A stretch of 64,000 nucleotides of DNA, taken from NCBI GenBank assembly GCA_016700335.1, contig CP065014.1, positions 2,309,479 to 2,373,478 of the forward strand, in the 5' to 3' direction. Every line of letters starts with the position of its first letter. The stretch's first letter is position 1. Origin of the DNA: Chlorobiota bacterium (GTDB taxonomy: Bacteria; Bacteroidota; Ignavibacteria; OLB7). Below are positions 17,617 to 64,000 of this stretch, piece by piece. The position numbers and the translations under genes were made by a program. The notes under the pieces were generated by a model. That model was not told where the DNA came from and did not search any database. It worked only from the letters and a program-made list of their open reading frames with translations.

Positions 17617-18228
17617 TTACAAAATTATATTATTATTTAAATCAAATATTTTTATTTTATCAAATTGATTATTTAGATATTCTTCTTTAAACATGGTAAA
17701 TACTTTGTGAACAAATCTATTTCCAGCTTTATCTTTTTCAATCACTCTAAATTCATATTCATTAGTAAAACCTAGCTTTGTGGGTATTTTGATGCTATTT
17801 GTATTCAATGAATTACATCTAATTTCTAATTTTTCAATTCCAATAATATTAAAAGCAACAAACATTAATGCTTTAGTGGCTTCTGTTGCATATCCTTTGT
17901 TTGCTTCATTCACATTTATCCAATATCCAATTTCAAGAATTCCCTCTCCTTGCCTTGTATGCAATCCTGTACCGCCAAATAATTTAGAATTATTACGATT
18001 AAAAATTCCATAGATGAAATCTTTATTTTCATTAAAATTATCAATCCAATTTATAATCCTATCTTCCTTTTGAGATATAGTTTCAGGCTCAAATTTTGCC
18101 CATGGCATAAATTCTGATAAATGAATAATACTCTCATCTATAGAATCCTTTAATAACTTTGCATCATTAAAATCATAGCATCTAATACATAGGTTTTGAG
18201 TTATTATTTTATAAGCTTTGTTTTCCAT
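17617..18228 (-). CDS. GNAT family N-acetyltransferase
   Basis: Acetyl-CoA-binding motif region (GYWINVNEANKGYATEATKALMFVAF). Confidence 0.7.
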   Translation of the reverse strand: MENKAYKIITQNLCIRCYDFNDAKLLKDSIDESIIHLSEFMPWAKFEPETISQKEDRIINWIDNFNENKDFIYGIFNRNNSKLFGGTGLHTRQGEGILEIGYWINVNEANKGYATEATKALMFVAFNIIGIEKLEIRCNSLNTNSIKIPTKLGFTNEYEFRVIEKDKAGNRFVHKVFTMFKEEYLNNQFDKIKIFDLNNNIIL

Positions 18229-26900: not shown

Positions 26901-27750
26901 TCAAATTCATTTATTAGATGAAGCAATTAAGCTAGTTGCTAATTTGGATGAACCTTTAGATGAAAATTTTGTTCGTAAAAGATCTTTAGAAATATCCGAT
27001 GAATTAAGTTTAGATTTTGATACTGCCTCAAGCAGAATTTTCTCTAATGCTCCTGGAGCTTACGGTACAAATGTTGAATATGCTGTTGGTCTTTCTGCAT
27101 GGAAGACACAAGAAAATTTAGCAGATGTATTTGTAAAACGAAAATCTTTTCTTTATGGTAAAAATATTAATGGTGAGTTAAATGATAATCTTTTAAAGTC
27201 GCTTGCTAAAGGAATTGATACAACATTTCAAAATCTAGATTCAAGTGAAGTTGGAATTACAGATGTTGATCATTATTTTGAATATCTTGGTGGACTTACA
27301 AACTTGGTTGCAACTCAACGTGAAGGGAAAAAACCAATCTCTTTGGTAGCCGATACAACAACTTCAAACCCTAAAGTTCGAACACTTGAGAATACTATTA
27401 GGCTTGAAGCTAGAACAAAAATTCTAAACCCAAAATGGTATTCATCTATGATTAAACATGGATATCAAGGAGTTGAGGAAATTAGAAAAAGATTTGATTA
27501 TACATACGGATTTAGCGCGACTGCACAAGCAGTTGAAAGCTGGGTTTATGATGAAGTTTTCAATATTTATTTTAGAGATATTGAAATGAGTAATAATATG
27601 CAAAATTTAAATATTCACTCTTACAATTTATTTTCAAATAGATTGTTAGAAAGTTATAATAGAGGTTATTGGAAGGCTACACAAATGCAATTAGATAAAT
27701 TGCAAAAATTAAATGAAGAAATAGAAGATAAACTTGAGGGGATTTTATAA
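23914..27750 (+). CDS. CobN/magnesium-chelatase large-subunit family protein (HmuS-like)
   Basis: 1278 aa. Conserved CobN motifs HFGTHGALEFMPGKQVGLSENCFPD and GGDPVRSPDVLPSGRNIHALDP. TTG start. No CobS/CobT or ChlI/ChlD partners in the window. Confidence 0.85.
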   Translation: MESYKIQITWIASEASRNSLLCSVNSELDLNFNLNTNILFFASNRLPYSNFELQESFSKSNIIIISHIILDEEVKVVLENLKYLKKNCTIVVVSSSSELMRLTRLGTFEMSAYVKDKNEEFDSPKVEPKIKTILKALTGNLDIAPYLKDIMVLAPKLLKLLPIKKATDIRRYIECYLYMIEQSKENICSMILMLTDIYSDNYKGLFKNKYSKPILYPQDGIYHPASEIIFTNQSDYLNFTKTKFDKYVGLILLRGSVISSDTIVIDSLIDGFESRGIGVIPAFSSSFDYRIAIEKYILFDDNIKVDALISLTGFPLVGGHVQSDIESSSKSLSSYNLPYYSPLSLLFQTINEWQNSDYGLSPVQTALHVSLPELDGAIEPIVLGGISDFKSSATISKRLDLFVERVIKRIDLKYKINFDKKIAITIFSFPPNKGTVGTAAYLDVFDSLINTLLKLKEEGYDVDLPLSKDQIINDIISGSDKLASVETAELNVADSMSVNQYVEFAGKQIIDRVSALWGNPPGNLNTNGIRINIFGKYYGKIFVGVQPSFGYEGDPMRLLFAKGASPHHGFLAYYLWIENVYKADAHIHFGTHGALEFMPGKQVGLSENCFPDIMINTLPNFYLYALNNPSEATIAKRRSLASIVSYNTPPLEFAGLYRELNSLKEIISNYREFEFDVKKSKQIFELIIIKSEDLNLTSDIGFIDIDADSTEIDLYVSKLYSTLAEIETRLIPAGLHTIGKSKTINEVIDLLMAISEYDRPEINIDSLVIQISNLFDIDYLFLQNNLQASNYKAVNKIAFVKNICREVLNELLLSDSNTALLKLKSFTNKKFSHKTFLNIFKYLKKVSVNATTDNELSSLISVMNSGYTPPAKGGDPVRSPDVLPSGRNIHALDPAGVPSAIAVRNARKVVEIMLNKNIELTGKYPESIGMILWGLDNIKTHGEAIAQAFILIGVEPKPNSFGRISRLKVIPLNELNRPRIDVTIEASGIFRDIFGIQIHLLDEAIKLVANLDEPLDENFVRKRSLEISDELSLDFDTASSRIFSNAPGAYGTNVEYAVGLSAWKTQENLADVFVKRKSFLYGKNINGELNDNLLKSLAKGIDTTFQNLDSSEVGITDVDHYFEYLGGLTNLVATQREGKKPISLVADTTTSNPKVRTLENTIRLEARTKILNPKWYSSMIKHGYQGVEEIRKRFDYTYGFSATAQAVESWVYDEVFNIYFRDIEMSNNMQNLNIHSYNLFSNRLLESYNRGYWKATQMQLDKLQKLNEEIEDKLEGIL

Positions 27751-34181: not shown

Positions 34182-34220
34182 CCCAACTTGAAATTATTTT
34201 TTCAAGTTGGGTTTAATTTT
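34182..34220 (+). terminator. Rho-independent terminator between the Cys-rich gene and the BNR gene
   Basis: CCCAACTTGAAA-TTATTTT-TTCAAGTTGGG hairpin, then TTTAATTTTT. Confidence 0.55.
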
Positions 34221-34233
34221 TAACTCTAAACTT

Positions 34234-36444
34234 ATGTGTAAATTTTATATTGTTTTTCTATTAATATTTTTATCGTTTCAAAACCTTAAGTCTCAACAAT
34301 TTTGGTCTAAAACTTACAGTACATATTCAAGTTGTACTATTTCTAATGATAATACATATTATATTGTTGGTGATTTTGGTTTTATTATACGTTCAGTGGA
34401 TTATGGTACTAATTGGAATCTGTTAAATTCTTCTACTTCATTGAATTTAAATTCTATTATTTCTTTTTCAAATAATTCTTTGTTTGTTGTTGGTGATCTC
34501 GGTATTATACTTTCTTCCATTGATAAAGGAAATAGTTGGAAAAATATTCCTATTAACTACAAAAATAACTTAACTTCTGTTTGTTCTTTTGATTCATTAA
34601 ACATTCTAATTGTTGGTGATAGTGGATTGATTTTAAAATCAATAGATGGCGGAATTCACTTTGATAAAGTTAATTCCAATTCAAATAGTAAATTGTTCAA
34701 AATTGTAAAATCTAGTAACCATTCAGCAACAATTATTGGCGATAGTGGTACTATTCTTTACACCTCTAACAAAGGTATTTCATGGGAATCTAAGTTTAAT
34801 TATTTATCTGAATATTTATTTGATATAGATTTTTTTAATGAGCAAATTGGGTCTATTTCTAGTTATCGAGGACTTTTAAGAACTAATGATAGTGGTAAAA
34901 GTTGGTACAATTTAACTCAATCCAATAGTTCATTTTATACAATAAGGCATATTACTAGTGATTCATTAATTAAATTTGATAATTTTCTAAAAATTTCAAA
35001 TGATTCTGGGAAGAATTGGAAAAAAACTAATGATGTGGTTAATTTAGATCAATCAATTTATATTACTTCAACTTCAATAAATGATAATAATTGTCTAATG
35101 GTTGGAGCTCTTATTCTAGTATCTTATGATAAATTTAAATCAAATATTGCTATTTCAAAACTACAAGGCAATGGTATTAATGATTTAATAGCTTTTGATG
35201 ATACTAGTTTGTTTATAGGTCGTGATTTAAATAGCTATGGAGATAGAAGTTTTGATATGGGTTTGACTTGGAAAACTACTAATAGAGGGTTTTTTTCTGT
35301 TGATAAATTTATTCAAATCTCTCAAGATTCTGCTTTTGCAGTAAACTATAGTCATGGGATTTTCAAACCTTATGATTTAAGAATTACGGGTGACAGAGGA
35401 AATACTTGGGTTGCAAATGAAACTAATGTTAATCTTCCAACTAATGACAAAAATTCTTACTCAACTTTTAAAAATCTTTCTTTTGTTAATAAGGTTTCTG
35501 GTATTCTTGCAATTGAGATTAGAGGGGACAATTATGGTTATTTACTATATACACGAGATGGTTGTTTGAACTGGGATACTGCTCATGTTGATAACAACCC
35601 TAATAGAGGTTATTGGGGTCTTCTTTTAGTTAATGAAAAGTTAGGCTTTGCTTCTTCTCTTGATTTAATTAAAAATATTGATTCTTCTTTTACTACTACT
35701 AACAGAATTTACAAAACTATTGATGGGGGGATGAATTGGGTTACTATCAAGCAATTTGTTTCAGATTTTAATGATTCTGTTCATTTTAAAAATTTCTTCT
35801 TTAAAGATTCTTTAGATGGCTTTGCTGTCGGGCAGAATGCCAAACTTGGTGCTGTTCTTCATCATACTACTAATGGTGGTATTGATTGGATTACTACGCA
35901 ATTTAAAGGTGTTAATTCTTTAAATAATGTTAAGTTCTTTAATAATAATATCGGTTTTTTATTAGGTTCTCAAGGCAATTTATTTTCTACTTCTGATGGT
36001 GGTATAAACTGGGTTAAGGAGAAACTCTGGTATGAAGATTTAGTCGATTCTTCTTTTAACTTAGAAGATATTTACATTATGCCTAACAGGAAAACTTTGT
36101 TCTTGAAAATGAGAATTGGAGATCGTGCACGCATTTTCAGAAAAACATTAACAAATCAAATTCCAATTAGTTCTGTTAACGAGCATAAATCTTTCAATAT
36201 AATTTCTGATATTTCTCCTAATCCTACTAATGATTTTGTTAATATTAAATGTGAATCTTTCTTAAACAAAGAAGTTGATGTCAAACTTTTAAACTCTATT
36301 TCTGAGGTTGTTTTTTCTGGTAAATTTATTAATTCATCTGATGGTTTTTATATTAATGTTTCTAACATTCCTAATGGATTTTATAATGTTGTTATTAAGG
36401 CTGGTGATAAAAGAAGCTTTCAAAAATTAATTGTTGAGCATTAA
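34234..36444 (+). CDS. BNR/Asp-box repeat (Ycf48/sortilin-like beta-propeller) protein with a T9SS C-terminal sorting domain
   Basis: At least 12 SxDxGxTW-type Asp-box motifs (SVDYGTNW, SIDKGNSW, TNDSGKSW, TIDGGMNW...). C-terminal CTD. Signal peptide starts at the internal ATG at 34234; the ORF track begins at 34207. Confidence 0.75.
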   Translation: MCKFYIVFLLIFLSFQNLKSQQFWSKTYSTYSSCTISNDNTYYIVGDFGFIIRSVDYGTNWNLLNSSTSLNLNSIISFSNNSLFVVGDLGIILSSIDKGNSWKNIPINYKNNLTSVCSFDSLNILIVGDSGLILKSIDGGIHFDKVNSNSNSKLFKIVKSSNHSATIIGDSGTILYTSNKGISWESKFNYLSEYLFDIDFFNEQIGSISSYRGLLRTNDSGKSWYNLTQSNSSFYTIRHITSDSLIKFDNFLKISNDSGKNWKKTNDVVNLDQSIYITSTSINDNNCLMVGALILVSYDKFKSNIAISKLQGNGINDLIAFDDTSLFIGRDLNSYGDRSFDMGLTWKTTNRGFFSVDKFIQISQDSAFAVNYSHGIFKPYDLRITGDRGNTWVANETNVNLPTNDKNSYSTFKNLSFVNKVSGILAIEIRGDNYGYLLYTRDGCLNWDTAHVDNNPNRGYWGLLLVNEKLGFASSLDLIKNIDSSFTTTNRIYKTIDGGMNWVTIKQFVSDFNDSVHFKNFFFKDSLDGFAVGQNAKLGAVLHHTTNGGIDWITTQFKGVNSLNNVKFFNNNIGFLLGSQGNLFSTSDGGINWVKEKLWYEDLVDSSFNLEDIYIMPNRKTLFLKMRIGDRARIFRKTLTNQIPISSVNEHKSFNIISDISPNPTNDFVNIKCESFLNKEVDVKLLNSISEVVFSGKFINSSDGFYINVSNIPNGFYNVVIKAGDKRSFQKLIVEH
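36247..36444. repeat. Direct repeat copy B (partner of 33111-33308)
   Basis: See copy A. Confidence 0.9.
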
Positions 36445-36465: not shown

Positions 36466-36920
36466 TCCCCGAAGCGCATCTATACGCCGAATTCTGTCTT
36501 CATTAATTTCTTAATGGAGGCAGTCATTTATCTTGACTGATAATTGCTTATCAAGTTCTTTGCCGCCTACCCGAATCCGTTTCAATTAATTTAAAAAGAG
36601 AAAGAAACGAAACTCTTTAAGCTATTTAGCTTTCTCAGATTCTGCATGGCGTTGCTCGGTATGGGGTTTGCACTGCCACAAATGATTACTCATTGTGCGG
36701 TGAGCTCTTACCTCACCATTTCACCCTTATCTCAATAAAATTATTTTATCAAGACGGTATATTTTCTGTTGCACTTTCCGTCACCTCTAAAATAATTTTG
36801 CAATTATAAATTGAATGCCCGGCTGTTAGCCGGCATACATTTCTTTTGATATCGAGTTCGGACGTTCCTCCGTAAGTTGTATAAATACAACTCTCCGGCG
36901 ACTGCCCAATGCACTCCGGT
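36466..36920 (-). ncRNA. rnpB: RNase P RNA, bacterial type A, with AT-rich helix expansions
   Basis: Read on the minus strand: GGGCAGUCGCCG, GGAGGAACGUCCGAACUC (P4 5' strand), GGUGACGGAAAGUGCAACAGAAAA, UAAGGGUGAAAUGGUGAGGUAAGAGCUCACC, and 3' ACAGAAUUCGGCGUAU. P1 pairing is GGAGUGCAU with AUGCGCUUC. Position and order match the E. coli M1 RNA consensus. Confidence 0.85.
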
Positions 36921-47832: not shown

Positions 47833-49359
47833 TTACCTAACCACACTCATTTTGTTTGTAATTTTATATCCATTTTGTTCTAAAATATACATATAATTTC
47901 CAGCTGGCAAATAAGTAGCATCAACTTCTACAGTATGTTCACCTGATTGTAATGTTTTACTCAAAATACCATAAGATTTTTTTCCATCAGGTGAAAACAA
48001 ATTAATTGCAACGTATCCATTTTGAACTAAATTAAAATTAATTTTAGTTTTATCATTAACAGGATTAGGGAAACAATTTGATAATGTCATCCCAGAAGGA
48101 ATAGTGTCATCATGAAAACTAGCTGCTTTAAATAAAGGTAATTTACTGAAGCTGCCATTTAGAAGCAACTTTTTAGAGTTTGCAGAACTTACACCCAACC
48201 AATCTTCTAAAACAGATGAGTAAATTTGTCTAAAATCAATAGTATGTTTTACGTCTCCGCGATCATCTAGGTTAGTAAGATTAGGTGCACCTCCAATTAC
48301 TTTTCCACCTAAAACATTTTTACCAATTACAAATTGAGGTGATGCTGCACCATGATCGGTACCTTGAGAACCATTTTCATTTAACCTTCTACCAAATTCA
48401 GAATATGTCATACAAACAACTCTATCAGCGTTTCCATTTGTAGATAAATCTTTCATGAAGGCATTAACAGCATTAGACAAATAAGAAAGAAGCTGTGCTT
48501 GAGCAGGTAATTGAACTGTATGAGTATCAAAACCTGAAAGTGATACAACAAATATATTAGTATTTAAACCACCATTAATTAGCCTTGCAACAACTCTTAA
48601 CTGAGAGGCTAATGAATCAGCACCATAAGTTTCTGAGTTTGTTCCAGAAAGCATAGCTTTATTAATTTCACTAGAATATTTATTAGATTGAGAAATTACA
48701 TCACGAACATAACTTAGTTCTGGTCCTGCCAAAGTTGTCGGAACAGGATCTGTACTTGCTTTCAGTCCCTTTGCAAGATTATACAACCTATCAGGATTGT
48801 CTAAAGCCATACCCATACTTCCTTTATTTGATTGAAGTAACAGAGATGTTGCAGAAGCTACTTGAATTGCATAAGGAGTATCTGGTAACACATTTGGGAA
48901 ATTGGGATATTTATTTTCTAAGTATCTACCAATCCAACCGGTAGTTTCATATTTATCTTCATCTGAAGCTGAATTAAAAATATCAGTTGATCTAAAATGA
49001 GAGCGATTATGATTTGGATAACCAACATTGCTAACAACAGCTAAATTCCCATCATTATACATTTTATAAAATGGGGATAATGAGTTGTGAAGAGCTAAAT
49101 CATTAGAGATTGGTAATACTTCACTTTTTTTCAACCCAATATTTTTTCTTGAACTAATATAAACTGGGTCATTGAAAGGTACAACTGTATTTAATCCATC
49201 GTTACCACCAAACAAATTTATTAGTACAAGAATTCGATCTGAAGCAACTGCTTTTTCTAAGCCATAATATGGAAGAGCTTTTGCAAACATCCCTGATGAT
49301 GCTATAGGTAATATGGCACCTGCTGTAACCGTATTTTGTATAAATTCTCTACGTTTCAT
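47833..49359 (-). CDS. DUF1501 domain protein with an N-terminal twin-arginine (Tat) signal and a C-terminal T9SS sorting domain
   Basis: MKRREFIQ...AKA Tat motif. DUF1501 core (LSGFDTHTVQ). C-terminal about 80 aa match Por_Secre_tail (CFPNPVNDKTKINFNL...AGNYMYILEQNGYKITNKMSVV). Confidence 0.75.
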   Translation of the reverse strand: MKRREFIQNTVTAGAILPIASSGMFAKALPYYGLEKAVASDRILVLINLFGGNDGLNTVVPFNDPVYISSRKNIGLKKSEVLPISNDLALHNSLSPFYKMYNDGNLAVVSNVGYPNHNRSHFRSTDIFNSASDEDKYETTGWIGRYLENKYPNFPNVLPDTPYAIQVASATSLLLQSNKGSMGMALDNPDRLYNLAKGLKASTDPVPTTLAGPELSYVRDVISQSNKYSSEINKAMLSGTNSETYGADSLASQLRVVARLINGGLNTNIFVVSLSGFDTHTVQLPAQAQLLSYLSNAVNAFMKDLSTNGNADRVVCMTYSEFGRRLNENGSQGTDHGAASPQFVIGKNVLGGKVIGGAPNLTNLDDRGDVKHTIDFRQIYSSVLEDWLGVSSANSKKLLLNGSFSKLPLFKAASFHDDTIPSGMTLSNCFPNPVNDKTKINFNLVQNGYVAINLFSPDGKKSYGILSKTLQSGEHTVEVDATYLPAGNYMYILEQNGYKITNKMSVVR

Positions 49360-49456: not shown

Positions 49457-51076
49457 TTACATTAATTGATACTCACCAAGACCCATTATTTTTGATATAC
49501 AAGATCTAATTCTTTGAGATGATTTATCAACATCCCATTCATAATCAAATCCACCAGCGAGTAACGCATCTAATAAATCAGCTTTCATATTATCAGAAAC
49601 ATCTATAGGAATAAATAGTGCTAATAAATTATCTAAAACTTTATGAACATCTTCTGAATTTGGCATTGATTTAACTAAAGCAATTGGATCAAAATTATAT
49701 GCTAAAGAACCAGTAATTGGTTCAATCCAATACTTTGTATAATTAATTCTTAAAGGCATAGTTACTCCGCTAATCCATGTTCTCCATCCTAACCAACCTT
49801 TTACATTAGGAGGATAAAACATCCATTGAGATAAGTGCATTGAAGCTGTAATAGGATCATGGGTATAAGGTACTGAAATATCTGTTTTTGTTCTATCCAT
49901 TGGTGACTTTGTATTTAATTCTTTATTAGCATCAACTACAAAATCAATTGGAGATTTAATTTTTGCCCCAATAATCTGTTCATCAAAGAAATGTTCACTT
50001 TGAAGAAGTTGTTCGAGTACCTTAGAGATATTCCAATTGTTACTAACTAAAGTTTGAGACATTCCTTTTACAATATCAGGATTTGGAACTTCATAAACAA
50101 AATACTTATAAAGTTTTTCACAAATAAATACAGCAGATCGGTTAATATTTTGGTCTTTATCAATTTGAGAGAAAATATGATCGATAACATCAAATTGAGC
50201 TTTACCTTCAATACCAAAATTTTTCTTTTCTCCAAAAATTTCTTTTTCACCGTTATCAAATCTTGCAGAATTAAAATTGCTACCGAGCCCTAAATTAGAC
50301 CACCCAGTAAACGACCTTGCAAGTGCAATAATATCTTTTTCAGAATAGTGAGGAGTTCCATCTGAATAATTCCCAATTCCAATACTAAAGAGTTCTAATA
50401 TTTCTCTTGCAAAATTCTCATTTGGGTTTCCAGCTATATTATATCTACCATCTAAATAAATTAACATGGCAGGGTCAATAGTAACTTTCTTAGTTAAACT
50501 TTTAAAATCACCGAAAGCAAATTCTCTAAATAACTGATTTTGAATAAAAATGTATTGAGCAACTTGAACCGTTGTAAAATCGCTTGTAAAATGATTGTGC
50601 CAAAACCATACCATTTTTTCTCTCAGACCCTGAGCAGGCTTCATCATCAAATCATACCACCATTCCATAGTATCTCTCAATCTTGCATAATAATATGATC
50701 TTTCAACATTATCAACATAAGCAAATGGCTGTTGGTTTGTCCAATCCTTTTTATAAGTCCCGGTTGCATTATTATCAACAGGTGGCAAAGGCAAAGGTCC
50801 TGGTGAAAGCATTTTTGAAATTAAATTTTTAGGAGATGTTTTAACAGCATCAATAATATCAATCCAATTGCAACCGAAATTGGCACGACGTAGCAAATGA
50901 GCAGCTCTCCGAGCATTCCAAGGTTTATCAGGTCTTGGTTGGTATGGGCTCAAATCTGATCCAGACCCTAATGGAACATCTGGTTGGTTTTTAAATTTGT
51001 TTGATGTAATAGTGTTACTTGAAGTTGATAAAATGTCTTGAATTAATGGCTTACTCAAGAATGATCTTCTATTCAT
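49457..51076 (-). CDS. DUF1800 family protein, the usual partner of DUF1501
   Basis: Tat-like NRRSFL at the N-terminus. Size and adjacency to DUF1501 fit the known pair. Confidence 0.65.
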   Translation of the reverse strand: MNRRSFLSKPLIQDILSTSSNTITSNKFKNQPDVPLGSGSDLSPYQPRPDKPWNARRAAHLLRRANFGCNWIDIIDAVKTSPKNLISKMLSPGPLPLPPVDNNATGTYKKDWTNQQPFAYVDNVERSYYYARLRDTMEWWYDLMMKPAQGLREKMVWFWHNHFTSDFTTVQVAQYIFIQNQLFREFAFGDFKSLTKKVTIDPAMLIYLDGRYNIAGNPNENFAREILELFSIGIGNYSDGTPHYSEKDIIALARSFTGWSNLGLGSNFNSARFDNGEKEIFGEKKNFGIEGKAQFDVIDHIFSQIDKDQNINRSAVFICEKLYKYFVYEVPNPDIVKGMSQTLVSNNWNISKVLEQLLQSEHFFDEQIIGAKIKSPIDFVVDANKELNTKSPMDRTKTDISVPYTHDPITASMHLSQWMFYPPNVKGWLGWRTWISGVTMPLRINYTKYWIEPITGSLAYNFDPIALVKSMPNSEDVHKVLDNLLALFIPIDVSDNMKADLLDALLAGGFDYEWDVDKSSQRIRSCISKIMGLGEYQLM

Positions 51077-52132: not shown

Positions 52133-53608
52133 TTACTTAGCAATAACAATAAATTCAGTTCTTCTATTCTTTTGCCTCCCAGTTTCATTGGTGTTTGCTG
52201 CAACTGGTGACAACATACCAAATCCTCTTGAACGTAATCTCTCAGTTGGAACACCTAACTCTATCAACGCTCTTCTAACTGCTTCAGCACGAGCTTCGGA
52301 TAACTTCTGATTATATTCTTCAGTACCATCAGAATCTGTATGACCCCTAATTTCTAGCTTTAACCTTGGGTACTCCTTCATTAAATCAAACACACCATTA
52401 ATAGCTTGTTCAGAACCAGCCATTAATTCTGCTTTATTATAATCAAAATAAATTGTCTCAACTGAAAACTTCATTCCATCATCAATAATTCCATCTCTTT
52501 TAATGGTATTATATTCCCCTTTTCCGATTTTGTTTGTTACAGATCCAGGTGGTGTAATACCAACATTAATTATATGTTTGCCAGTTCCTTTTGGTGGTTT
52601 ATAAGTAATTATATAATAGTTCTTTAGACTATGGTAAATGTCTTCAAATACTCCTTTAAACTCATTAGAAGAATATGTTTGGTAGAATCTTCCACCAGTA
52701 TTTTTTGATAATTCACTTAACAATTCTTTATTCACAATTCCAAATGCTATAGTGAAAATAGGTATAGAATTTTCAATACTATATTTGTAAAGATCATTTG
52801 CAGAAATTGTACTTGCATTATCTTCACCATCTGTAAACAAAACTAAAGCTCTAGGATTATTTTTAGGGGAATCAATAATCTGATTCTCAGCTAATTTTGC
52901 ACCCTGGTATAAAGCAGTATACCCTCCAAATTTACCAAGACCTCTTGGTTCAAAATTCTTTATAATTTCATTTATTGATTTGTTTGCCGGTACTGATAAT
53001 TTAACATTCTCATCAAATTTCACAATTGAGATAATATCATTTTCTCCCTTGAGTTTCACAAAGCCAATTGCAGCATCTTCCAATGGTGTAATGTTCTGAC
53101 CCATTGAGCCTGAATAATCTAATGCCATTGCCAATTGATAAGGTATATTTTCGTTTTCACTAACTTCACGAACTGTAAAATTGTCAATATTTTCTTTAGG
53201 TCCATTATTACCAATTTGTTCAGATAATGAATTCCAAATTTTATGATAATCTTCAGTACCTTTGTAATAAGGTGGGGCTAAACCAGAAACTAAATTTCCA
53301 TCACCATCAAAAACTCTTACATATATTGTAATTGAATCTGGATATGATTTTGAATCCACCCTCCAAACTTCTAACGAAAGTGAATTTGGATTTATAGTAT
53401 TCAATTGTTTTGTAGATTTAACATATACTGGTTCAATATAGCCATCTGGTTTTGTTGGATTAAGTAATGGTTTTACTGAATCTTCAAATGATCTGCAGGC
53501 TGAGATTTGTAATATTATTATAAAGAAAATGAACTTTAATTTGTTTTGAAAAATTTTCATTTGGAATTTATTTGTAGATATACAGTAGTATTTATTTGTA
53601 TGATACAA
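52133..53608 (-). CDS. vWA domain - OmpA domain lipoprotein
   Basis: Lipobox (LQISAC). vWA MIDAS DYSGSM and LFTDGEDNAS. C-terminal OmpA motif (RGHTDSDGTEEYNQKLSEARAEAV...NRRTEFIV). Confidence 0.75.
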   Translation of the reverse strand: MYHTNKYYCISTNKFQMKIFQNKLKFIFFIIILQISACRSFEDSVKPLLNPTKPDGYIEPVYVKSTKQLNTINPNSLSLEVWRVDSKSYPDSITIYVRVFDGDGNLVSGLAPPYYKGTEDYHKIWNSLSEQIGNNGPKENIDNFTVREVSENENIPYQLAMALDYSGSMGQNITPLEDAAIGFVKLKGENDIISIVKFDENVKLSVPANKSINEIIKNFEPRGLGKFGGYTALYQGAKLAENQIIDSPKNNPRALVLFTDGEDNASTISANDLYKYSIENSIPIFTIAFGIVNKELLSELSKNTGGRFYQTYSSNEFKGVFEDIYHSLKNYYIITYKPPKGTGKHIINVGITPPGSVTNKIGKGEYNTIKRDGIIDDGMKFSVETIYFDYNKAELMAGSEQAINGVFDLMKEYPRLKLEIRGHTDSDGTEEYNQKLSEARAEAVRRALIELGVPTERLRSRGFGMLSPVAANTNETGRQKNRRTEFIVIAK

Positions 53609-53959: not shown

Positions 53960-54970
53960 TTGAATATGGATTCAAATTCAGAAAATAATTTTATTGACAA
54001 CTCAGAAGAAAAAAATGAGTTTTTACACAATTCTGATGAAGGATTTATTTATGCTTCCCTTGAAGCTAGGTTATCTCATATTGAAGAATTAGTAATTGAT
54101 TTACATGAATGGATTGGATCTGAACACGTATCTTCATTAGGAGGTTCTTACCGAAGGTTGTATTCACAATTAGTTGCGAATGATTTTGAACAAAGATATG
54201 CAGCACAAATTGTTAGAATGTTGTATGATAATCGTACTTCTAATGATGTAAGCGATCAAGATTTAAGGGCACTAGCAATTAATCATATTAATACTGAAGT
54301 AACTGCCAATAAAGAAACTATGGCTTACTTAAGTAAAAACAGCTCTAAGCCTTATATATTAGCTCTTGTAGGTCCTTCTGGTGCTGGCAAAACAACAATG
54401 ATGTACAAGCTTGCAGTTCGTGCTGTTTTAAATTTCGAATTGAAAGTAAAAGTAATTTCAAGTGATACATATAAAATTGGTTCTGTTGAAGGCATTCAAA
54501 CAATTGCTGATATATTGAATATTCCATTTGGTATAGCTTTTGAACCTGAAGAAATTCCTGGATTAATAAATGAATCTGAAGCAGATTTAATTTTACTTGA
54601 TACTGCAGGAAGATCGGACTCTGAAGCCCGTGAAGAATTATATGAATTTATTTCTGCTGCTAAACCTAACGAAATTCATCTAGTGCTTTCTGCCACTATG
54701 AGCCGCCGTGCAATTCAGGAAACTGCTGCTCTTTTTCTCGGTGAAAAAATTAATTGTTTGTCTTTTACTAAAATTGATGAAGCCCCATCTATTGGTGGTG
54801 TTATCTCGTCAGTTAGATGGATGGGTTTACCAATTGGCTATATTTCTAATGGTACTGCTATTCCAGATGATTTGTTACCTGCATCAGATATTTCCTTGGG
54901 TTCGTATTCTTTAGATGGAGTTCCTCCATCTATTTCACAACAAGAAGGTAAACTTGATACTCATGTTTAG
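53960..54970 (+). CDS. flhF: FlhF-like SRP-family (SIMIBI) GTPase
   Basis: G1 GPSGAGKTT, G2 DTYKIG, G3 DTAGRS, G4 TKIDEA. The G4 form resembles FlhF rather than FtsY/Ffh, which carry TKLDGxAxGG. Confidence 0.6.
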   Translation: MNMDSNSENNFIDNSEEKNEFLHNSDEGFIYASLEARLSHIEELVIDLHEWIGSEHVSSLGGSYRRLYSQLVANDFEQRYAAQIVRMLYDNRTSNDVSDQDLRALAINHINTEVTANKETMAYLSKNSSKPYILALVGPSGAGKTTMMYKLAVRAVLNFELKVKVISSDTYKIGSVEGIQTIADILNIPFGIAFEPEEIPGLINESEADLILLDTAGRSDSEAREELYEFISAAKPNEIHLVLSATMSRRAIQETAALFLGEKINCLSFTKIDEAPSIGGVISSVRWMGLPIGYISNGTAIPDDLLPASDISLGSYSLDGVPPSISQQEGKLDTHV

Positions 54971-57014
54971 ATATTTTATATATTCTTTTTTATTTCTAAT
55001 TGTTTCTTTTTCACTTTCTATTAATGTAAAAGCTAATGGAGTTTTAACAGATGCCCAATGGCGTGGAAGCAATTTAGTTTTGAGATTTTCAGATAGTATT
55101 TTGTATCAAGTTGATTTTGCAAATAGTGATTCTAAAAATGTAGCAGTTAGTTTAATTGGTGCAAATTTGAGTGCTATTTCAAATAATTTAAAAGTGGAAC
55201 CTTTCACTTTAGATGCTCCAGGCGGACTGACCCGAGCAACACTTGTTCAATTAAAACCCAATTTAGTTACTCTAAAAATCAATTTACTTCCAAATTATTC
55301 TTTCTCTGTTTTATGGAGACCTTATTCCAATCAATTTTTGGTTTATACTTATCAATGGGATAAATTATCTGTATCTGAAAAAGAGTTTCATAAAGGTTTA
55401 ATCGCTCTTGAAAACGGACTTAAAGAACAAGTCGAAAAACTTTTAGCCACGTCTGCTTCTTTAGGTAATAAAAATGCTCGTTCGGTTTTAGGGGTTTTTT
55501 ATGCCAAAGTTGGGAATGATGAATTTGCTGAGCAATATTTAACTAATCCTTCTGAACCCGATGATTATGCTGCCTTAGCAGAAGTGAAAACTAGATCTGG
55601 AGACAAAGCATTGGCTTTTAGTTATGATAATAAATTCAGGAGTTTGATGAAAGCTCAAAGAGTTACTTCAAATGATGATAGTATAACTTTAATTACCAAT
55701 TCACAAAAATTTTTAAAACAACTAGATTCAGAAAAAAAATCTAAATCCGCAGTTTTAAATTCTTTAAATGACCCAATTTTTATTACAATTATTCTAATTG
55801 TAATTTTACTATTTATATTGATAGTTTTTTTAATCACTAAAAGATCTGGTGGTAAAAATAATAGCAACTTAAATTCTAAAAGAGATTTTTTTAGATCTAA
55901 TAACTCAAGAAAGAATTACTACGATTATAGTAATGAGTATTCAAATTATTCAAACAAAAAAAGTAAATCTAAAATTACAAATGAGGATATTTTAAATACA
56001 TCTGATTTTAAATCTGTTAATAATGATTCAGATTCTTTTCCATTTGATAATGCATTTAGTAATTCTGATTTTAGAATTATTCCTAGCACTAGTTCAATTG
56101 ATATTTCTGATGGAGAACATATTGTAAATCAAGCAAAAGCATTAATCAAAAATGATGAAATCCATGATGAATCAAATGAGAAAGGTGAAATTAAATCTTC
56201 TGATAAAAATATATCTGGTGAAAATGATTCTAATATAAATTCTAAAATTATAACTTTTGAAGATAATTATCATAATGATAATTCAAATTCAGATTCATTG
56301 ATAAAAAATAACAATGATGATGATGAAGTTAATAATTTAGATTTAAAAACAGATGAGGAGAATACTTTAGATGAAAAGTTAGAAGAAGAGATAATAACAA
56401 AATATAGGCTTAACAATAAATTTGTTGATTTACAAAATAAAATACCTAATTATAGTAGTGAAATTTCAATTAATACTGATTTAAACATTCATAAAGATAA
56501 TTTAACTAATGAATTGAAATCAAAAGAAAATAAAGAAAATTTAATTACTGAATCTAGTTCAAATAATAAAGAAAATCAAAGTAAATCAACTATTAAAAAT
56601 GATGGATTTTTAGATAACCTTAATCAAGATAAAATTGAATTAAAAATACCTACAATTACTAATGAATTTTTAAAACATAACAGATTTGCAACTAATCTGA
56701 ATCAGAAGCCAAAACAATTATCTGTTCAAACTTTAGAACTAAGAAAAAAGATTGAAACAATGAATAATTTGAATGTTAATTTAACATCTAAAGATAATCC
56801 TAATATAAATAATCATAATTTTAGTTTTACAGATTCAACTTTATTAGATAAAAATTTATACTCTAATCATACATTATTAACAATTTCTAAAAGATGGTCA
56901 AAACCAACTGCAGGTTTTGATGCAATGCCTATAAAACAAGCTGCAAAAACTGAAAAAGTTTCAAGAGATTATATTATGTTAAAGGAATTAATGCAACGAA
57001 CTAAAGTAAATTAA
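54963..57014 (+). CDS. Membrane protein with a periplasmic N-domain, a TM segment and a long N/S/D/K low-complexity cytoplasmic tail; translationally coupled to flhF
   Basis: The ATG overlaps the flhF stop (ATGTTTAG). Signal/TM at the N-terminus, TM at about residue 280, then about 390 aa of low complexity. Confidence 0.45.
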   Translation: MFRYFIYSFLFLIVSFSLSINVKANGVLTDAQWRGSNLVLRFSDSILYQVDFANSDSKNVAVSLIGANLSAISNNLKVEPFTLDAPGGLTRATLVQLKPNLVTLKINLLPNYSFSVLWRPYSNQFLVYTYQWDKLSVSEKEFHKGLIALENGLKEQVEKLLATSASLGNKNARSVLGVFYAKVGNDEFAEQYLTNPSEPDDYAALAEVKTRSGDKALAFSYDNKFRSLMKAQRVTSNDDSITLITNSQKFLKQLDSEKKSKSAVLNSLNDPIFITIILIVILLFILIVFLITKRSGGKNNSNLNSKRDFFRSNNSRKNYYDYSNEYSNYSNKKSKSKITNEDILNTSDFKSVNNDSDSFPFDNAFSNSDFRIIPSTSSIDISDGEHIVNQAKALIKNDEIHDESNEKGEIKSSDKNISGENDSNINSKIITFEDNYHNDNSNSDSLIKNNNDDDEVNNLDLKTDEENTLDEKLEEEIITKYRLNNKFVDLQNKIPNYSSEISINTDLNIHKDNLTNELKSKENKENLITESSSNNKENQSKSTIKNDGFLDNLNQDKIELKIPTITNEFLKHNRFATNLNQKPKQLSVQTLELRKKIETMNNLNVNLTSKDNPNINNHNFSFTDSTLLDKNLYSNHTLLTISKRWSKPTAGFDAMPIKQAAKTEKVSRDYIMLKELMQRTKVN

Positions 57015-57067: not shown

Positions 57068-59497
57068 TTATCTAATCACTACAAAATTTGTAGAGAATTT
57101 CTCTCCATTATCATTAAATCTTAAAGTATAAATTCCAGGCTTTAATGAAGAAGTATTCAAACAAAACTCATTCGTCAAAACATTTACTTGATAATTTGTT
57201 TTATTAATTGAAGCTCCTAAACAATTACTGACGATTAATTTATCAATATTTACAACTTCTTTATTAATAAATTTTATATTCAAATAATCTTTCGCTGGAT
57301 TTGGATAAAGTATAACATTAGAATTAACAGGTTTGATTAGATTTTCATTTTTGTTTATTGAAGTTAAAAAAGCATTCCAAATTCCAAACGCAGTTGATGG
57401 TGAATTACCTACTAGAGAGAAATCGCCCCCAATATAAATATAATTATTGTCAGTAGCTAAAGTTTGAATTAATGTAGAATTACTTAAACTGGATGTTGAA
57501 CTCCCAACAACACCGCTTCCAAGTAGCTCCCATGATGTTCTGTTCCACTTTGCAATTGAATTTGCCTTTATTCCTGAGATTGAACTGAAGGATCCCGCAG
57601 CATACAAAAGTCCATTATTAGTTGAAGTTAAAGCATTTATTTTTGAATCTTTTCCAGATAATTCAGAGCTCATTTCGAACCATTCTTTTCCATCATAGCT
57701 TGCAATTCCAAAGGATGATACATTACCAGCTTTTTTAAAATCACCTCCAACAAACAGCTCGTTGTTTACACCAGAATGAATAACCCTAACCGTTGAATCA
57801 CATCCATTACCCAAAGGGACAAAAAGATTGTTTTCATATTTTGCGATATTATTTGCAATTACACCTGAGATTTCTTTAAAATTACCACCACAATACAATG
57901 TTCCAAATTTGTTTACTGTCACACAAAGAATTATACTATCACTTCCTTTTGAAAGAGGTACCCATTTTTCATTTTCAAGTGTAGCAATATTTTTATACTC
58001 TTGATTTAGAATTTTAAAATTCCCTCCAATGTATAATTTATTTTCAAATTTTGTAATTGAGTTTACAATACCAATAATATTATTTCCAATAGCTGACCAT
58101 TTTGTGCCATCCCAAACACCTACTGAGTTTATATTTTCTCCATTTATTTTTGAGAATGAACCAACAATAATTATTTTGTCAATACTTGTTGAAGTATCAA
58201 CAATCATTGAGTTAATTACTCCATTGATTGGTTCTTTAATTAGATTAGTCCATTTTTTACCATCCCAAGAAGCCAATGTTCTAACAACTTCTCCTTTATC
58301 ATCAAAGGATCCACTAACATATATATTTTTTCTTCCTATTGAAATATTTGTAATATTTTGGAAATAACCTTTTGTAAATTCATTGGATATTTGTTCCCAT
58401 TTAGAATTTTTAAACATTGCAATATGTTCTGAATACTGCTTTCCTGCTTGTGAGAAATATCCACCACAAAAAATAGAACTATCATTTGTAACAATTATTG
58501 TATTAACACCTCCACTAGTGCCATCACCTAATTTATTCCATTTCAATCCATCCCATTTTGCTATATTATTGACAGTATCATTTCCCGCAATATTAAAATG
58601 ACCCGCAATAAATATATCTTTACCAATGCTAACAATTGATGAAACAGACGAACCTTCAATTCCTCTTCCTAATGAAAACCACTTTTTTCCACTCCACCTT
58701 GCAATACCCCATGCAGGGGTGTTTGAGCTTACCGCAGCAAAACCTCCACCAACATATAAATTGCCATTTGAATAATGTAATGCTTGAACAATTCCTTGAG
58801 TTCCACCATCAAGAACCTCCCATTGATTGTTCACAAATTTTGCAACATTAAATGCCTCCTTATCTCCAGCAAATATAAAGTCACCTCCAACGAATAATGA
58901 ACCCTCACCATATGCAATTGAATAAACAGTTCCTTCAATTCCATTATCGGGAAATGTATTCCATTCTTTATTTTTTAAAGAATATGAAGCAAGGTTTTTA
59001 GATGTTAAACCATTTATTTCTGTAAAGTTTCCACCTACATAAATATTGTCATTAACAATTAACAAAGTTCTAATTGCAGAAGAATCTTTAGGAGAAATAC
59101 TATCTGATATACTCTTCCAAATTCCATTATCCCAAACTGCTAAAGAATGAATTGATTTTCCAGATATGGATTTAAAATCTCCACCTATATAAATTAGATC
59201 TTTATAAGTTGCAACAGAATAAATTGAGCCTCCATTAATTTCTCCTCCTAGAGAATACCAGGATTTGCTTTTTTTATTCCAGACAGCAATTTTATTTACA
59301 ATTATATTTCCTGAAATTGTAAAATCACCTGCAACAACAATTTCATCATTATTTCTTTCAGCAATTGAATTTACATTTCCATTTAAACCAGGTATTCCAA
59401 AATTTTTACTCCAATTGATATCATTGTTAACTTGTGAATATCCATTTAAATTATTTAACAACAAACAAAACAAAATTGAGAAAAATAATTTTAACAT
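57068..59497 (-). CDS. Secreted beta-propeller repeat protein (delta-60-like IYVGGDF repeats) with a T9SS C-terminal sorting domain
   Basis: At least 10 repeats of about 50 aa carrying a GG(D/N)F core. Signal peptide. C-terminal CTD (YPNPAKDYLNIKF...GIYTLRFNDNGEKFSTNFVV). Confidence 0.65.
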   Translation of the reverse strand: MLKLFFSILFCLLLNNLNGYSQVNNDINWSKNFGIPGLNGNVNSIAERNNDEIVVAGDFTISGNIIVNKIAVWNKKSKSWYSLGGEINGGSIYSVATYKDLIYIGGDFKSISGKSIHSLAVWDNGIWKSISDSISPKDSSAIRTLLIVNDNIYVGGNFTEINGLTSKNLASYSLKNKEWNTFPDNGIEGTVYSIAYGEGSLFVGGDFIFAGDKEAFNVAKFVNNQWEVLDGGTQGIVQALHYSNGNLYVGGGFAAVSSNTPAWGIARWSGKKWFSLGRGIEGSSVSSIVSIGKDIFIAGHFNIAGNDTVNNIAKWDGLKWNKLGDGTSGGVNTIIVTNDSSIFCGGYFSQAGKQYSEHIAMFKNSKWEQISNEFTKGYFQNITNISIGRKNIYVSGSFDDKGEVVRTLASWDGKKWTNLIKEPINGVINSMIVDTSTSIDKIIIVGSFSKINGENINSVGVWDGTKWSAIGNNIIGIVNSITKFENKLYIGGNFKILNQEYKNIATLENEKWVPLSKGSDSIILCVTVNKFGTLYCGGNFKEISGVIANNIAKYENNLFVPLGNGCDSTVRVIHSGVNNELFVGGDFKKAGNVSSFGIASYDGKEWFEMSSELSGKDSKINALTSTNNGLLYAAGSFSSISGIKANSIAKWNRTSWELLGSGVVGSSTSSLSNSTLIQTLATDNNYIYIGGDFSLVGNSPSTAFGIWNAFLTSINKNENLIKPVNSNVILYPNPAKDYLNIKFINKEVVNIDKLIVSNCLGASINKTNYQVNVLTNEFCLNTSSLKPGIYTLRFNDNGEKFSTNFVVIR

Positions 59498-61992: not shown

Positions 61993-64000
61993 ATGAAGAC
62001 AGAAAGCCATTCAATAAATGATGTATTAGCTAAAAATGCAACATCATTTTTTATTCCACCATTTCAAAGAGCTTATTCTTGGGGTAGACCAGAAATTGAA
62101 AGATATTTTAGTGATATATCAAGAATTATAGAATCAGATTTAGATTTTAAACAACACGATAAATTAGAACACTTTTTCGGCACAGTTGTTATAAAAGAAG
62201 AAAAAGCAGGGTTCGCAAACAAATCAGTTGTAGTTGATGGTCAACAAAGACTTACAACCACTCTTATTTTCTTAATTGCACTTCGAGATTGTGAAACAGA
62301 TATTAAAAATCAAGAATATATTACCCAAAACTATTTAACAAACAACTCATCTTCATACCAAGACAAGATAAAACTTAAGCAAATAACAAAAGATTGGGAT
62401 TCATATAAAGCATTAGTAAACAAAACAAAACCAAAAGCAGGTGTTATAAGCAATGCTTATGAATTACTTAAAAAACTTATCAGTGAAAAGAAAAAATTAA
62501 ATCCTGAAGTTTCTTTTGAGAATTACATTATTGCTATTCAAAGAATAAATGTAGCAGTAATTTTTTTAGATGAAAGACCATTTAAAGGCGAAGACCCTCA
62601 AATAATATTTGAAACTCTAAATTCCTTGGGCAAACCATTGACACTATCTGACCTTGTAAGAAATTTTGTCTTACTTAATATGGAAAGTAATAAACAGTCA
62701 GATATTTATGAAAAAATTTGGCATCCAAATATTGAAGATATTCTTAATGAAAATTCATCCAAATTTTTTAGAGACTATTTGCAATATAAAACCAGTAGTT
62801 CTTTAAAAGTTGTTAGTGATAACAATACAAAAGAATTGTATCATCAATTTAAAGCTTTTGTTGAAGACAAATTTGAAAACCATAATGACTTCGTTATTGA
62901 TATTGTTCGCTTTGTAAAATGTTATAAATGGATTATTACCGAAATAGTTAATGAGCCCATTTCTCATAATTCAACAAAGGATAAGGAAATTAAAGAATTA
63001 CTTAGAAATATATTTCACGATATAAAGGCAGAAGCATTTAAACCACTCGTAATGGGGTTATTAGAATATCATCAATATACAGTTAACGATATTAGATTAA
63101 CTGATGAATTTTTAATTTCAACTTTAACTACAATAAGAACCTATCTTATAAGGCGAAGAATTTTAGGACTTACACAAGGAGAAAATAAAAACATTGTGAA
63201 TTTCAGCAAAAAAATTGAAGATTTGTCAAATGGAAATAATTTTATGATTGAACTTCTAACTAATCTATTTTATAGACTTAGATTACCTAATGACAATGAG
63301 ATAAAAAATTCTTTGACCTTAATGAATTTTTATGAAGGTTCAAAACAATATTCAAAATTTGTTTTAGGTAAAATAGAAGAGCATAACACAAAAGTGTCTG
63401 TTGATTTCCGTAATCCCAAAATTACTATTGAGCATATAATGCCTCAAACTTTAGAAGATAGTTGGAAAGAAGAATTAGGTAAAAATTTTAAAGAAATTTC
63501 CAAGAACTATTTACATAACATTGGCAATTTAATACTTACAGAATTTAACAGTGAAATTGGTAACAAACCATTTATTGCAAAGAAAAGAAAATTAGAGACA
63601 TCTTCTTTATATTTTAGATTGGACATTGTAAAAAGAGATATTTGGAATGAACAAAGTATTAAAGAACATCAAGCTAATATGATTACTTGGTTTCTTGAGA
63701 CATTTCCATTGCCAGAACTTTATAAAGAAAAAGAAAATTGGAACACACTATCCAATGAAAATACTCTATTTTCACCATTAGATACTGATGCAGGCGAAAT
63801 AGCAGAGGGAAATAAACCAATAGAACTTCAAATTTACAAAGAAGTAATTATTGTTAAAACTTGGCAGGATGTTTTTATTAAATTTATAAACCATTTGAAG
63901 AATAATTCCGAATTTGATTTTGATTTTATTCTAGAAAATCAAACTGAATTGTTCAGACGTGAAGATACAATAATAAAATGGAGTACCTTGAAGGAGTTAA
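61993..64000 (+). CDS. GmrSD-family (DUF262 + DUF1524) type IV restriction / anti-phage nuclease. 3' truncated at the window end; absent from the supplied ORF track.
   Basis: My own translation of the frame starting at ATG 61993 gives at least 669 codons with no stop. DUF262 hallmarks: FFIPPFQRAYSW and VVDGQQRLTT. DUF1524 His-Me-finger-like motifs: IEHIMPQT and HNIGNLILTEFNSEIGNK. Confidence 0.8.
   Translation, partial: MKTESHSINDVLAKNATSFFIPPFQRAYSWGRPEIERYFSDISRIIESDLDFKQHDKLEHFFGTVVIKEEKAGFANKSVVVDGQQRLTTTLIFLIALRDCETDIKNQEYITQNYLTNNSSSYQDKIKLKQITKDWDSYKALVNKTKPKAGVISNAYELLKKLISEKKKLNPEVSFENYIIAIQRINVAVIFLDERPFKGEDPQIIFETLNSLGKPLTLSDLVRNFVLLNMESNKQSDIYEKIWHPNIEDILNENSSKFFRDYLQYKTSSSLKVVSDNNTKELYHQFKAFVEDKFENHNDFVIDIVRFVKCYKWIITEIVNEPISHNSTKDKEIKELLRNIFHDIKAEAFKPLVMGLLEYHQYTVNDIRLTDEFLISTLTTIRTYLIRRRILGLTQGENKNIVNFSKKIEDLSNGNNFMIELLTNLFYRLRLPNDNEIKNSLTLMNFYEGSKQYSKFVLGKIEEHNTKVSVDFRNPKITIEHIMPQTLEDSWKEELGKNFKEISKNYLHNIGNLILTEFNSEIGNKPFIAKKRKLETSSLYFRLDIVKRDIWNEQSIKEHQANMITWFLETFPLPELYKEKENWNTLSNENTLFSPLDTDAGEIAEGNKPIELQIYKEVIIVKTWQDVFIKFINHLKNNSEFDFDFILENQTELFRREDTIIKWSTLKEL

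Follow-up and report, generated by a model that had tools for sequence, protein, structure and literature searches.

A 64,000-nucleotide stretch of contig CP065014.1 from a Chlorobiota bacterium (hereafter the window) encodes a GTPase of the SRP (signal recognition particle) type whose 3' end overlaps the start of a gene for a previously unannotated bitopic membrane protein, here called gene 2. Sequence comparisons place the GTPase in the FlhF clade, as a form reduced to its N and G domains, and the overlapping pair recurs across divergent genomes of one bacterial class, the Kapabacteria. Gene 2 has a predicted AMIN-like periplasmic domain, one transmembrane (TM) helix and a long cytoplasmic tail with two conserved motifs, the first of which appears to match the core of the FlhG enhancer helix. 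We judge the chances to be about even that gene 2 is a peptidoglycan-anchored landmark that tethers, and probably activates, the FlhF-type GTPase, the two proteins together forming a Kapabacteria-specific, membrane-anchored switch.

The GTPase and its overlap with gene 2

The GTPase contains a Pfam SRP54 domain (E = 2.9e-28). Six FlhF equivalogs head its NCBIfam matches (1e-29 to 3e-20), with FtsY at 6e-20 and Ffh at 1e-18. It scores under every curated FlhF cut-off (103.5 against 174.15 bits for TIGR03499, and 103.8 against 585 for PRK12723). The best PDB matches are FlhF of B. subtilis (2px0, 7e-25) and of Shewanella (8r9r, 1e-24), with SRP54 (2e-17) and FtsY (~ 1e-12) lower. Its close relatives form a family of ~ 68 clusters (51-78% identity; full-length members of 316-334 amino acids, aa), separated by an E-value gap from 1e-75 to 1e-43 from the canonical FlhF proteins, which are ~ 400-430 aa long. 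A neighbour-joining (NJ) tree recovers the family as monophyletic in 100 of 100 replicates and, with the root on FtsY, places it with FlhF rather than with Ffh in 97 of 100. The outgroups, one FtsY and one Ffh, were recovered from loci L011 and L012; the pattern scan of genome contigs was dominated by a generic P-loop pattern and yielded at least two family loci, one FtsY, one Ffh and four ABC ATPases. The initial annotation, made from the letters alone, had called the protein an FlhF-like SRP-type GTPase and named a clustering with FtsY or Ffh as evidence against that view. No such clustering occurs, and the NCBIfam models, the PDB search and the NJ tree all bear out the FlhF label. On these comparisons we assign the GTPase to the FlhF clade, and not to FtsY or Ffh.

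The family differs from canonical FlhF most clearly at its N-terminus. The P-loop lies at residue ~ 127, against ~ 210 in canonical FlhF, matches begin at position 110 of the TIGR03499 profile, and tblastn alignments begin at FlhF residue ~ 136. The FID motif, M(R/K)IKK...LG.DAxxL, is found by pattern in 37 of 52 canonical FlhF, the other full-length ones being positive on inspection and three being truncated, whereas none of 63 GTPase-family members has it. As judged from the alignments, the protein consists of the N and G domains only, and the B domain with its FliG-binding FID has been lost. Because the FID is absent, the GTPase would be unable to use the known FliG route.

The nucleotide-binding motifs G1, G3 and G4 are intact, and the distinguishing substitutions lie elsewhere. 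An insertion-box Arg is present in all 21 canonical FlhF in which the motif was located, and also in the FtsY and Ffh examined (DT[YF]R, or DVYR in Ffh; DTYR in 2px0 and DHYR in 8r9r), whereas the GTPase family has Lys. The GQxVPDD of canonical FlhF reads GTxIPDD in every family member, with Thr in place of Gln, and where Ffh and FtsY have TKLDG(T/D)ARGG, the family has TK(I/L)DEAPSLG. Since the protein's own catalytic Arg is replaced by Lys in every member, it would be expected to depend more on an external activator.

Gene 2 begins inside the GTPase gene, its start codon sitting within the final GTPase codons (His-Val-stop), so that the two reading frames share the 8-nt sequence ATGTTTAG. 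We read this overlap as translational coupling, as did the initial annotation, which had noted it in the window; it proves to be a property of the family. Orthologs of both genes are paired at 12 of 12 distinct loci from divergent genomes (L001/window, L004, L006/L007, L009, L010, L017, L018, L019, L020, L021, L022 and L028), with GTPase identities of 50-78%, which answers the suggestion that co-occurrence be checked across genomes. The overlap, cATGtNTRA, was read directly in eight loci, and for all 12 the gene calls give the same 8-nt overlap by their coordinates. The last two GTPase residues, His-Val, do not vary among the 63 aligned sequences because the gene 2 start overlaps those codons. 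An alternative TTG start of the GTPase open reading frame (ORF) lies at 53960, upstream of the ATG at 53966. For gene 2, an earlier ATG at 54915 offered by the ORF lister was rejected, as it is not a conserved start.

Locus L028 was reached from the gene 2 side and is therefore an independent reverse test of the pairing, and for 9 of 19 gene-2 clusters the longest contig has exactly the length of the longest contig of a GTPase cluster. Flanking genes vary among the 12 loci, except for an OmpA-domain protein. Because the pair and its 8-nt overlap are kept in 12 divergent loci with differing flanks, the association is more than chance. Relatives of the GTPase are labelled Kapabacteria, Chlorobi or Bacteroidetes bacterium, and by this sampling of sequences the pair is conserved in, and specific to, the class Kapabacteria. 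Scans for promoters and terminators there stayed at chance level in the locus, and neither an Rfam family nor a meaningful tandem repeat was found in it.

The membrane protein and its relatives

The full gene 2 protein matches no Pfam or NCBIfam family, and its layout was read from an ortholog alignment and two AlphaFold (AF2) models with mean predicted local distance difference test scores (pLDDT) of 80.4 and 75.9. A homolog search with the full-length query returned only 2 matches, because low-complexity words filled the candidate list, and a query with the N-terminal alignment returned 19; an exhaustive search of representatives gave ~ 37 ortholog clusters at 50% identity. Behind the signal peptide lie a beta-sandwich (block-mean pLDDT of 80-94 over most of its length, falling once to 62) and ~ 3 helical repeats, for which Foldseek, a PDB profile search and Pfam all give TPR matches. 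These are followed by the TM helix and a 391-aa cytoplasmic tail rich in N (16.6%), S (11.8%), K (11.3%) and D (8.7%). Ortholog tails range from 129 to 409 aa and are P/A/E-rich in high-GC genomes. The topology proposed in the initial annotation, with a secreted or periplasmic N-domain, one TM helix and an N/S/D/K-rich cytoplasmic tail of ~ 390 aa, agrees with this layout. The accompanying description as a novel membrane protein is right in that the protein was unannotated, but it has its ~ 37 ortholog clusters and a larger sister family. Together with these relatives, gene 2 can be taken, on sequence and predicted structure, to define an unannotated superfamily laid out as AMIN-like domain, TM helix, disordered linker and C-terminal hairpin, with either a histidine kinase or a GTPase as partner.

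The periplasmic domain is probably AMIN-like, although the E-values are modest. Foldseek matches the beta part to AmiC (4bin, E = 5e-3) and PilQ B2 (4aqz, E = 7.5e-3), with 2.8e-3 reached by a second ortholog, and AMIN-fold matches (4bin, 4aqz, 4av2) recur in two independent models at E 3e-3 to 1.5e-2, with probability 1.0 and TM-scores (target) of 0.23-0.49. Other Foldseek matches of the domain are 9hmf_K, a few low-probability ones and three uninspected multi-domain ones (2if4, 1qz2, 3c0v). Pfam AMIN (PF11741) stays under its gathering score, with a best E of 0.012 in one of eight orthologs and values of 0.0036 and 0.049 in the sister family. AMIN, LysM and SPOR domains bind denuded septal or polar peptidoglycan, and AMIN targets PilQ to future poles (PMC5285504).

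Only two islands of conservation interrupt the hypervariable tail. Motif 1 has the family form QAxxL(R/Q)(R/K)(R/K)IE, with the consensus (S/T)QAA(E/D)LRR(R/K)IEAMR, and always lies 51-105 residues from the C-terminus. Among the representatives from the exhaustive search, 39 of the 49 GTPase-coupled tails carry the pattern Q[AT]xx[LI]R, against 0 of 109 sister-family tails of equal mean length, which have an ELALHLxxEQQKLK motif at this position. Strict QAxxLR is present in 37 of the 49 members; the ten exceptions to motif 1 comprise eight with QAxxLQ or QAxxLL, one with QGxxLR and one without the motif. By sequence, motif 1 seems to match the core of the FlhG enhancer helix, DQAxxLR, whose Gln is the co-catalytic residue for GTP hydrolysis by the FlhF dimer (PMC12826062; bioRxiv 2022.03.19.484964). 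The FlhG of an Ignavibacteriales flagellar cluster (L008) reads IQDQASGLRRM. The called start of that FlhG is too far downstream, and the upstream frame (L008 ~ 11270-11396) encodes MHDETHIQDQASGLRRM, the DQAxxLR enhancer helix missing from the called protein.

Motif 2 has the family consensus EARRLxLSRDxVELRRRLE and is common to the histidine-kinase-coupled sister families (AKKLGIEKGxLETKK). A reading of motif 2 as a Fis-type helix-turn-helix (AARxLGISRxTLYRK) was rejected, with no HTH_8 or consistent Pfam match on eight C-terminal segments.

The sister family comprises ~ 250 further representatives at 50% identity (E 1e-24 to 1e-10), with the layout of AMIN-like domain, TPR, TM helix and K/E-rich tail, and with the C-terminal signature A(K/R)(K/R)Lx(I/V)x(K/R)(G/D)xLE in common with gene 2. 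In five loci from genomes of ~ 33% GC (L023-L027, match at 8001-9500 in each), the sister gene is preceded, with a 4-nt overlap, by the gene of a conserved cytoplasmic 449-aa histidine kinase (L027:6646-7995). No FlhF-like gene lies within 8 kb in these five loci, and the neighbourhood is a housekeeping one (KdsA, LptC, TIM, PgsA, YggS). A GAF histidine kinase in the flagellar cluster L008 is homologous to this kinase (26% identity, E = 1e-39) and overlaps by 4 nt a gene for a 397-aa protein (16480-17673). This pair (L008:15101-17673) stands between the fliA/HDOD genes and flgF, and flgF-flgG-flgA-flgH-flgI follow directly 3'. The 397-aa protein has a signal peptide, a beta domain, a TM helix and a tail, and ends ...ELAMRIR...AAKKLGVGKGELEL. 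Alignments of it to the family profiles with hhalign gave low probabilities; its architecture, C-terminal signature and homologous upstream kinase suggest that it is related to the family. The scaffold thus predates its pairing with the GTPase. Its cytoplasmic partner enzymes differ, and for at least one copy there is a link to flagellar genes.

Table 1. Positions in the window of the GTPase-gene 2 pair, its domains and motifs, and the divergent neighbour.
Feature	Position	Residues	Strand	Basis or remark
VWA + OmpA-like (peptidoglycan-binding) lipoprotein	52133..53560		-	Pfam VWA + OmpA; divergent from GTPase
FlhF-clade SRP-type GTPase gene, 334 aa	53966..54970		+	ATG 53966 is the start of identical public protein P0001
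GTPase N domain		~30-125
GTPase G domain		130-310
G1 P-loop GPSGAGKTT	54371..54397		+	invariant in family alignment
Insertion-box motif DTYKIGS	54464..54484		+	K170 invariant in 63 family members
G3 motif DTAGR	54599..54613		+	family alignment
G4 motif TKID	54767..54778		+	family alignment
GTAIPDDL, family form of FlhF GQxVPDDI	54851..54874		+	G296 and T297 invariant
8-nt overlap ATGTTTAG	54963..54970		+	gene 2 ATG 54963-54965; GTPase TAG stop 54968-54970
Gene 2, bitopic membrane protein, 683 aa	54963..57014		+	ORF; orthologs 3' of GTPase in 12/12 loci
Signal peptide (predicted)	54963..55034	1-24	+	sequence reading, ends VKA-NG; AF2 helix 2-19; cleavage after VKA inferred
Periplasmic nine-stranded beta-sandwich, AMIN-like (predicted)	55038..55355	26-131	+	AF2, Foldseek
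Periplasmic TPR-like helical repeats (predicted)	55371..55652	137-230	+	AF2 pLDDT >90
TM helix	55776..55838	272-292	+	followed by KRSGGK (positive-inside)
Hypervariable low-complexity cytoplasmic linker	55839..56726	from 293	+	composition; AF2 of P0133 disordered
Motif 1, QTLELRKKIE	56727..56756	589-598	+	alignment; long predicted helix, block-mean pLDDT 76-88 over core
Motif 2, AAKTEKVSRDYIMLKELMQR	56940..56999	660-679	+	predicted helix-turn-helix hairpin at C-terminus

Proposed mechanism, rival explanations and genomic context

Under the reading that we favour, the periplasmic part of gene 2 most likely anchors it at septal or polar peptidoglycan, or at a partner in the envelope, much as LysM serves HubP and FimV; the conserved OmpA-domain neighbour is a candidate for such a partner. 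The disordered cytoplasmic linker, free to vary in length, would act as a tether, at the end of which the tail would capture the GTPase, as the HubP C-terminus binds the NG domain of FlhF. Motif 1 would most likely dock on the GTP-bound GTPase dimer, insert its Gln as co-catalytic residue in a composite active site and so trigger hydrolysis. With Lys for Arg in the GTPase's own catalytic loop, the switch would lean more heavily on this outside element. Motif 2 may be a general partner-binding or self-association element. Gene 2 would thus unite the roles of a landmark or recruiter (HubP, FimV, FipA) and of a GTPase activator (the FlhG N-terminus). The flagellum is the default candidate for what the module positions.

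Several observations weigh against this mechanism. QAxxLR, with a core of four residues, was noticed post hoc; the family does not conserve the Asp of DQAxxLR, one subclade has Gln for the Arg, and a PDB peptide search with 31 aa around motif 1 gave no match to the FlhG helix. The AMIN assignment is based on Foldseek E-values of ~ 3e-3 to 7e-3 and sub-threshold Pfam matches. Sister proteins of the same architecture pair with histidine kinases. Partnership with FlhF is therefore not intrinsic to the scaffold, and binding could be through motif 2 instead of motif 1.

FlhF and FlhG provide the main model for flagellar placement and number in bacteria, and two matters still open in that field are the means by which FlhF reaches the pole and the control of its GTPase in cases where FlhG has no DQAxxLR helix, as in Pseudomonas FleN. 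The module amounts to a natural experiment, in which FlhF appears to have been cut to its GTPase core and genetically welded to a landmark-type protein bearing an enhancer-helix-like motif. If motif 1 acts in the way set out above, a single protein could both recruit and inactivate an SRP-type GTPase, and the activator helix would be a portable module. Should the host genomes lack flagella, the module would clearly exemplify an FlhF-type switch turned to a different use.

So, is the module flagellar? Of the window's 44 ORFs of at least 150 aa, 37 were scanned with Pfam or NCBIfam models and no flagellar gene was found among them, and tblastn of the window with 24 proteins of the Ignavibacteriales flagellar cluster, where the canonical flhF arrangement is seen, had the GTPase as its sole match. 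No GKGGxGK motif occurs anywhere in the window. Neither flhA, flhG, fliA nor any other flagellar gene stands beside the pair in the 12 loci, in flanks of up to 8-10 kb (three of the loci being on contigs too short for full flanks). The initial annotation had remarked on the missing flhA and flhG and on the lack of other flagellar genes nearby; both remarks hold in the window, and the former in 11 other genomes as well. At L020:1-576 (- strand), MotA/ExbB-family and STAS-domain proteins are encoded ~ 9.5 kb upstream of the pair; the MotA/ExbB gene is cut by the locus end, and a flagellar stator cannot be told from ExbB/TolQ there.

It seems to us rather unlikely that the GTPase is an ordinary flagellar FlhF in genomes with scattered flagellar genes, with gene 2 a lineage-specific flagellar accessory (a PflA-type scaffold or FipA-like recruiter) and QAxxLR a coincidence. 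Scattering as such has precedent, as two Kapabacteria, Ch6 and Thermonerobacter, have genes for flagella and chemotaxis, and the flagellar ones do not form a single cluster. The kinase and 397-aa protein directly before flgF-flgG in L008 also speak for a flagellar accessory, as does the best periplasmic Foldseek match, the C. jejuni motor scaffold chain K, but the TM-scores of that match are only 0.1-0.2. The FID and B domain, FlhF's link to FliG, are absent from 63 of 63 members, and in 12 genomes the pair has no flagellar gene within 10 kb. In flagellated Thermonerobacter, the one COG1419 FlhF is gene 19 of its contig and a MinD-like COG0455 protein is encoded by gene 20, which is the canonical flhF-flhG order, on a different contig from flhA, flhB and fliR. 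The Ch6 chromosome (2,660,650 bp) is not among the contigs of the GTPase-family matches listed (best 120 of 328), which is weak evidence, and for the chromosome-scale contigs with the pair, those same listed matches show no further FlhF of the canonical kind. Seven paddy-soil Kapabacteria metagenome-assembled genomes (MAGs) are reported to lack flagellar assembly genes, and the specificity of motif 1 is hard to put down to chance.

Loss of the FliG-binding FID, the distance of the pair from any flagellar locus in 12 genomes, the canonical flhF-flhG of flagellated Thermonerobacter and the reports of some Kapabacteria without flagellar genes would all suit a repurposed, non-flagellar polarity module, arisen after the loss of flagella or in parallel with them, that positions another envelope structure or process, for example the type IX secretion system (T9SS) or surface machinery, cell division or pole maturation. 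The surroundings of the locus are rich in T9SS cargo genes, the AMIN-like domain points to septal or polar peptidoglycan, and non-flagellar effects of FlhF, such as on B. cereus hemolysin secretion, have been reported (PMC7218170). We nonetheless hold this to be unlikely: no candidate cargo shows conserved linkage, the flanks varying apart from the OmpA-domain protein. The pair may include an FlhF-derived GTPase that no longer serves flagella, in host lineages without a flagellar regulon or canonical flhF-flhG. It would then be a self-contained polarity switch with a peptidoglycan-anchored landmark, to which the Gln helix had moved from FlhG, and it would position some other envelope machine or process; we regard this as possible, if doubtful. 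A very improbable alternative is an SRP-receptor-like device, in which the GTPase acts like FtsY in co-translational insertion and gene 2 is the membrane anchor. The SRP54-type NG fold and the matches to FtsY and Ffh models at 1e-18 to 1e-20 are what it would predict, but the GTPase groups with FlhF, has TK(I/L)DEAPSLG rather than TKLDG(T/D)ARGG, and has no acidic A domain or membrane-targeting helix. FlhF-type proteins, moreover, homodimerise rather than pair with Ffh (PMC12826062).

The OmpA-domain neighbour may have a functional link to the pair, judging by its recurrence. The VWA-OmpA protein (480 aa) is encoded divergently upstream in six loci (L001, L004, L006, L007, L020 and L021). At its position, L017, L018, L022 and L028 have an ECF (extracytoplasmic function) sigma factor, an anti-sigma factor, a 660-aa double-OmpA protein and a ~ 1700-aa T9SS-tailed protein; the 480-aa and 660-aa proteins have only their OmpA-like domains in common.

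Three other proteins of the window carry T9SS C-terminal sorting domains, namely a BNR/YCF48-like protein (34207-36444, +), a DUF1501 protein (47833-49359, -), which adjoins a DUF1800 protein at 49457-51076, and a Rax2/DUF5122 beta-propeller (57068-59497, -); the host therefore has a type IX secretion system. Elsewhere in the window, a bacterial RNase P RNA of class A (36467-36917, -) matches the full-length model at 226 bits, and no tRNA genes were found in the 64 kb. A 1278-aa CobN/Mg-chelatase large subunit (23914-27750, +; Pfam 1094 bits, E = 0) is encoded in what is described as a non-phototrophic lineage. A GmrSD-type (DUF262/DUF1524) restriction-like protein of 733 aa (~ 61993-64000, +; L001:18028-20229) continues beyond the window end, and its gene is divided into two ORFs in the near-identical Logan contig L002.

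Comparison with known systems

The GTPase has in common with FlhF (TIGR03499; PDB 2px0, 3syn and 8r9r) the NG fold, the G1, G3 and G4 motifs and TKxDE...G, and FlhF is its nearest relative by hidden Markov models, PDB search and tree. It differs in having no B domain or FID, in its sub-cut-off scores, and in the Arg-to-Lys and GQ-to-GT changes. Its gene, never beside flhA, flhG or fliA, is followed by that of a membrane protein instead of the MinD-type FlhG.

Gene 2 resembles HubP and FimV in its predicted cell-wall-binding periplasmic domain, its single TM helix and its long low-complexity cytoplasmic region of variable length with a conserved C-terminal element; in HubP, the cytoplasmic C-terminus binds the FlhF NG domain (PMC11236974). 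Unlike them, it has an AMIN-like beta-sandwich and TPR-like repeats instead of LysM, is much smaller, lies in an operon with the GTPase and has no detectable sequence similarity. Pfam finds no LysM in gene 2, and neither Pfam nor NCBIfam finds the FimV C-terminal domain in the full protein or its C-terminal segments. The HubP/FimV likeness raised in the initial annotation therefore stands for architecture (AMIN-like and TPR-like parts, disordered linker, conserved helices) and fails for membership: by these searches, gene 2 is not a HubP/FimV protein.

Motif 1 is, like the FlhG (YlxH/FleN) enhancer helix, a short predicted helix with Q-A-x-x-L-R followed by basic and hydrophobic residues (family consensus TQAAELRRRIE). 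In FlhG, however, the helix is at the N-terminus of a MinD-type ATPase, whereas motif 1 is near the C-terminus of a membrane protein that has neither an ATPase domain nor a C-terminal amphipathic membrane-targeting sequence; Pfam and NCBIfam found no ParA, MinD or CbiA domain in gene 2. FipA, like gene 2 as proposed here, is a membrane protein partner of FlhF, and fipA is encoded beside flhF, upstream of it. FipA is small, with an N-terminal TM helix and a cytoplasmic DUF2802, whereas gene 2 has a large periplasmic domain and lies downstream of the GTPase; no DUF2802 match appeared in its N-terminal part or C-terminal segments, even at E up to 10.

PflA, the flagellar periplasmic scaffold of Campylobacter and Helicobacter, has an N-terminal periplasmic beta-sandwich followed by TPR repeats (PMC12222027), as is predicted for gene 2. 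Foldseek ranks chain 9hmf_K of the C. jejuni motor scaffold first or nearly first among the matches of the gene 2 models (E = 2.9e-4 and 5.3e-3), but with a root-mean-square deviation >25; from its length and beta-sandwich-plus-TPR architecture, we take this chain to be PflA (PMC12222027). PflA has 16 TPR repeats, and no TM helix or cytoplasmic tail in that description, against ~ 3 repeats, a TM helix and a tail in gene 2. Among open-access texts, we found no paper that links FlhF with AMIN domains in this sense or describes B-domain-less FlhF-like proteins. By analogy, the module would work like a fusion of FlhF, a recruiter of the HubP/FimV/FipA type and the FlhG enhancer helix.

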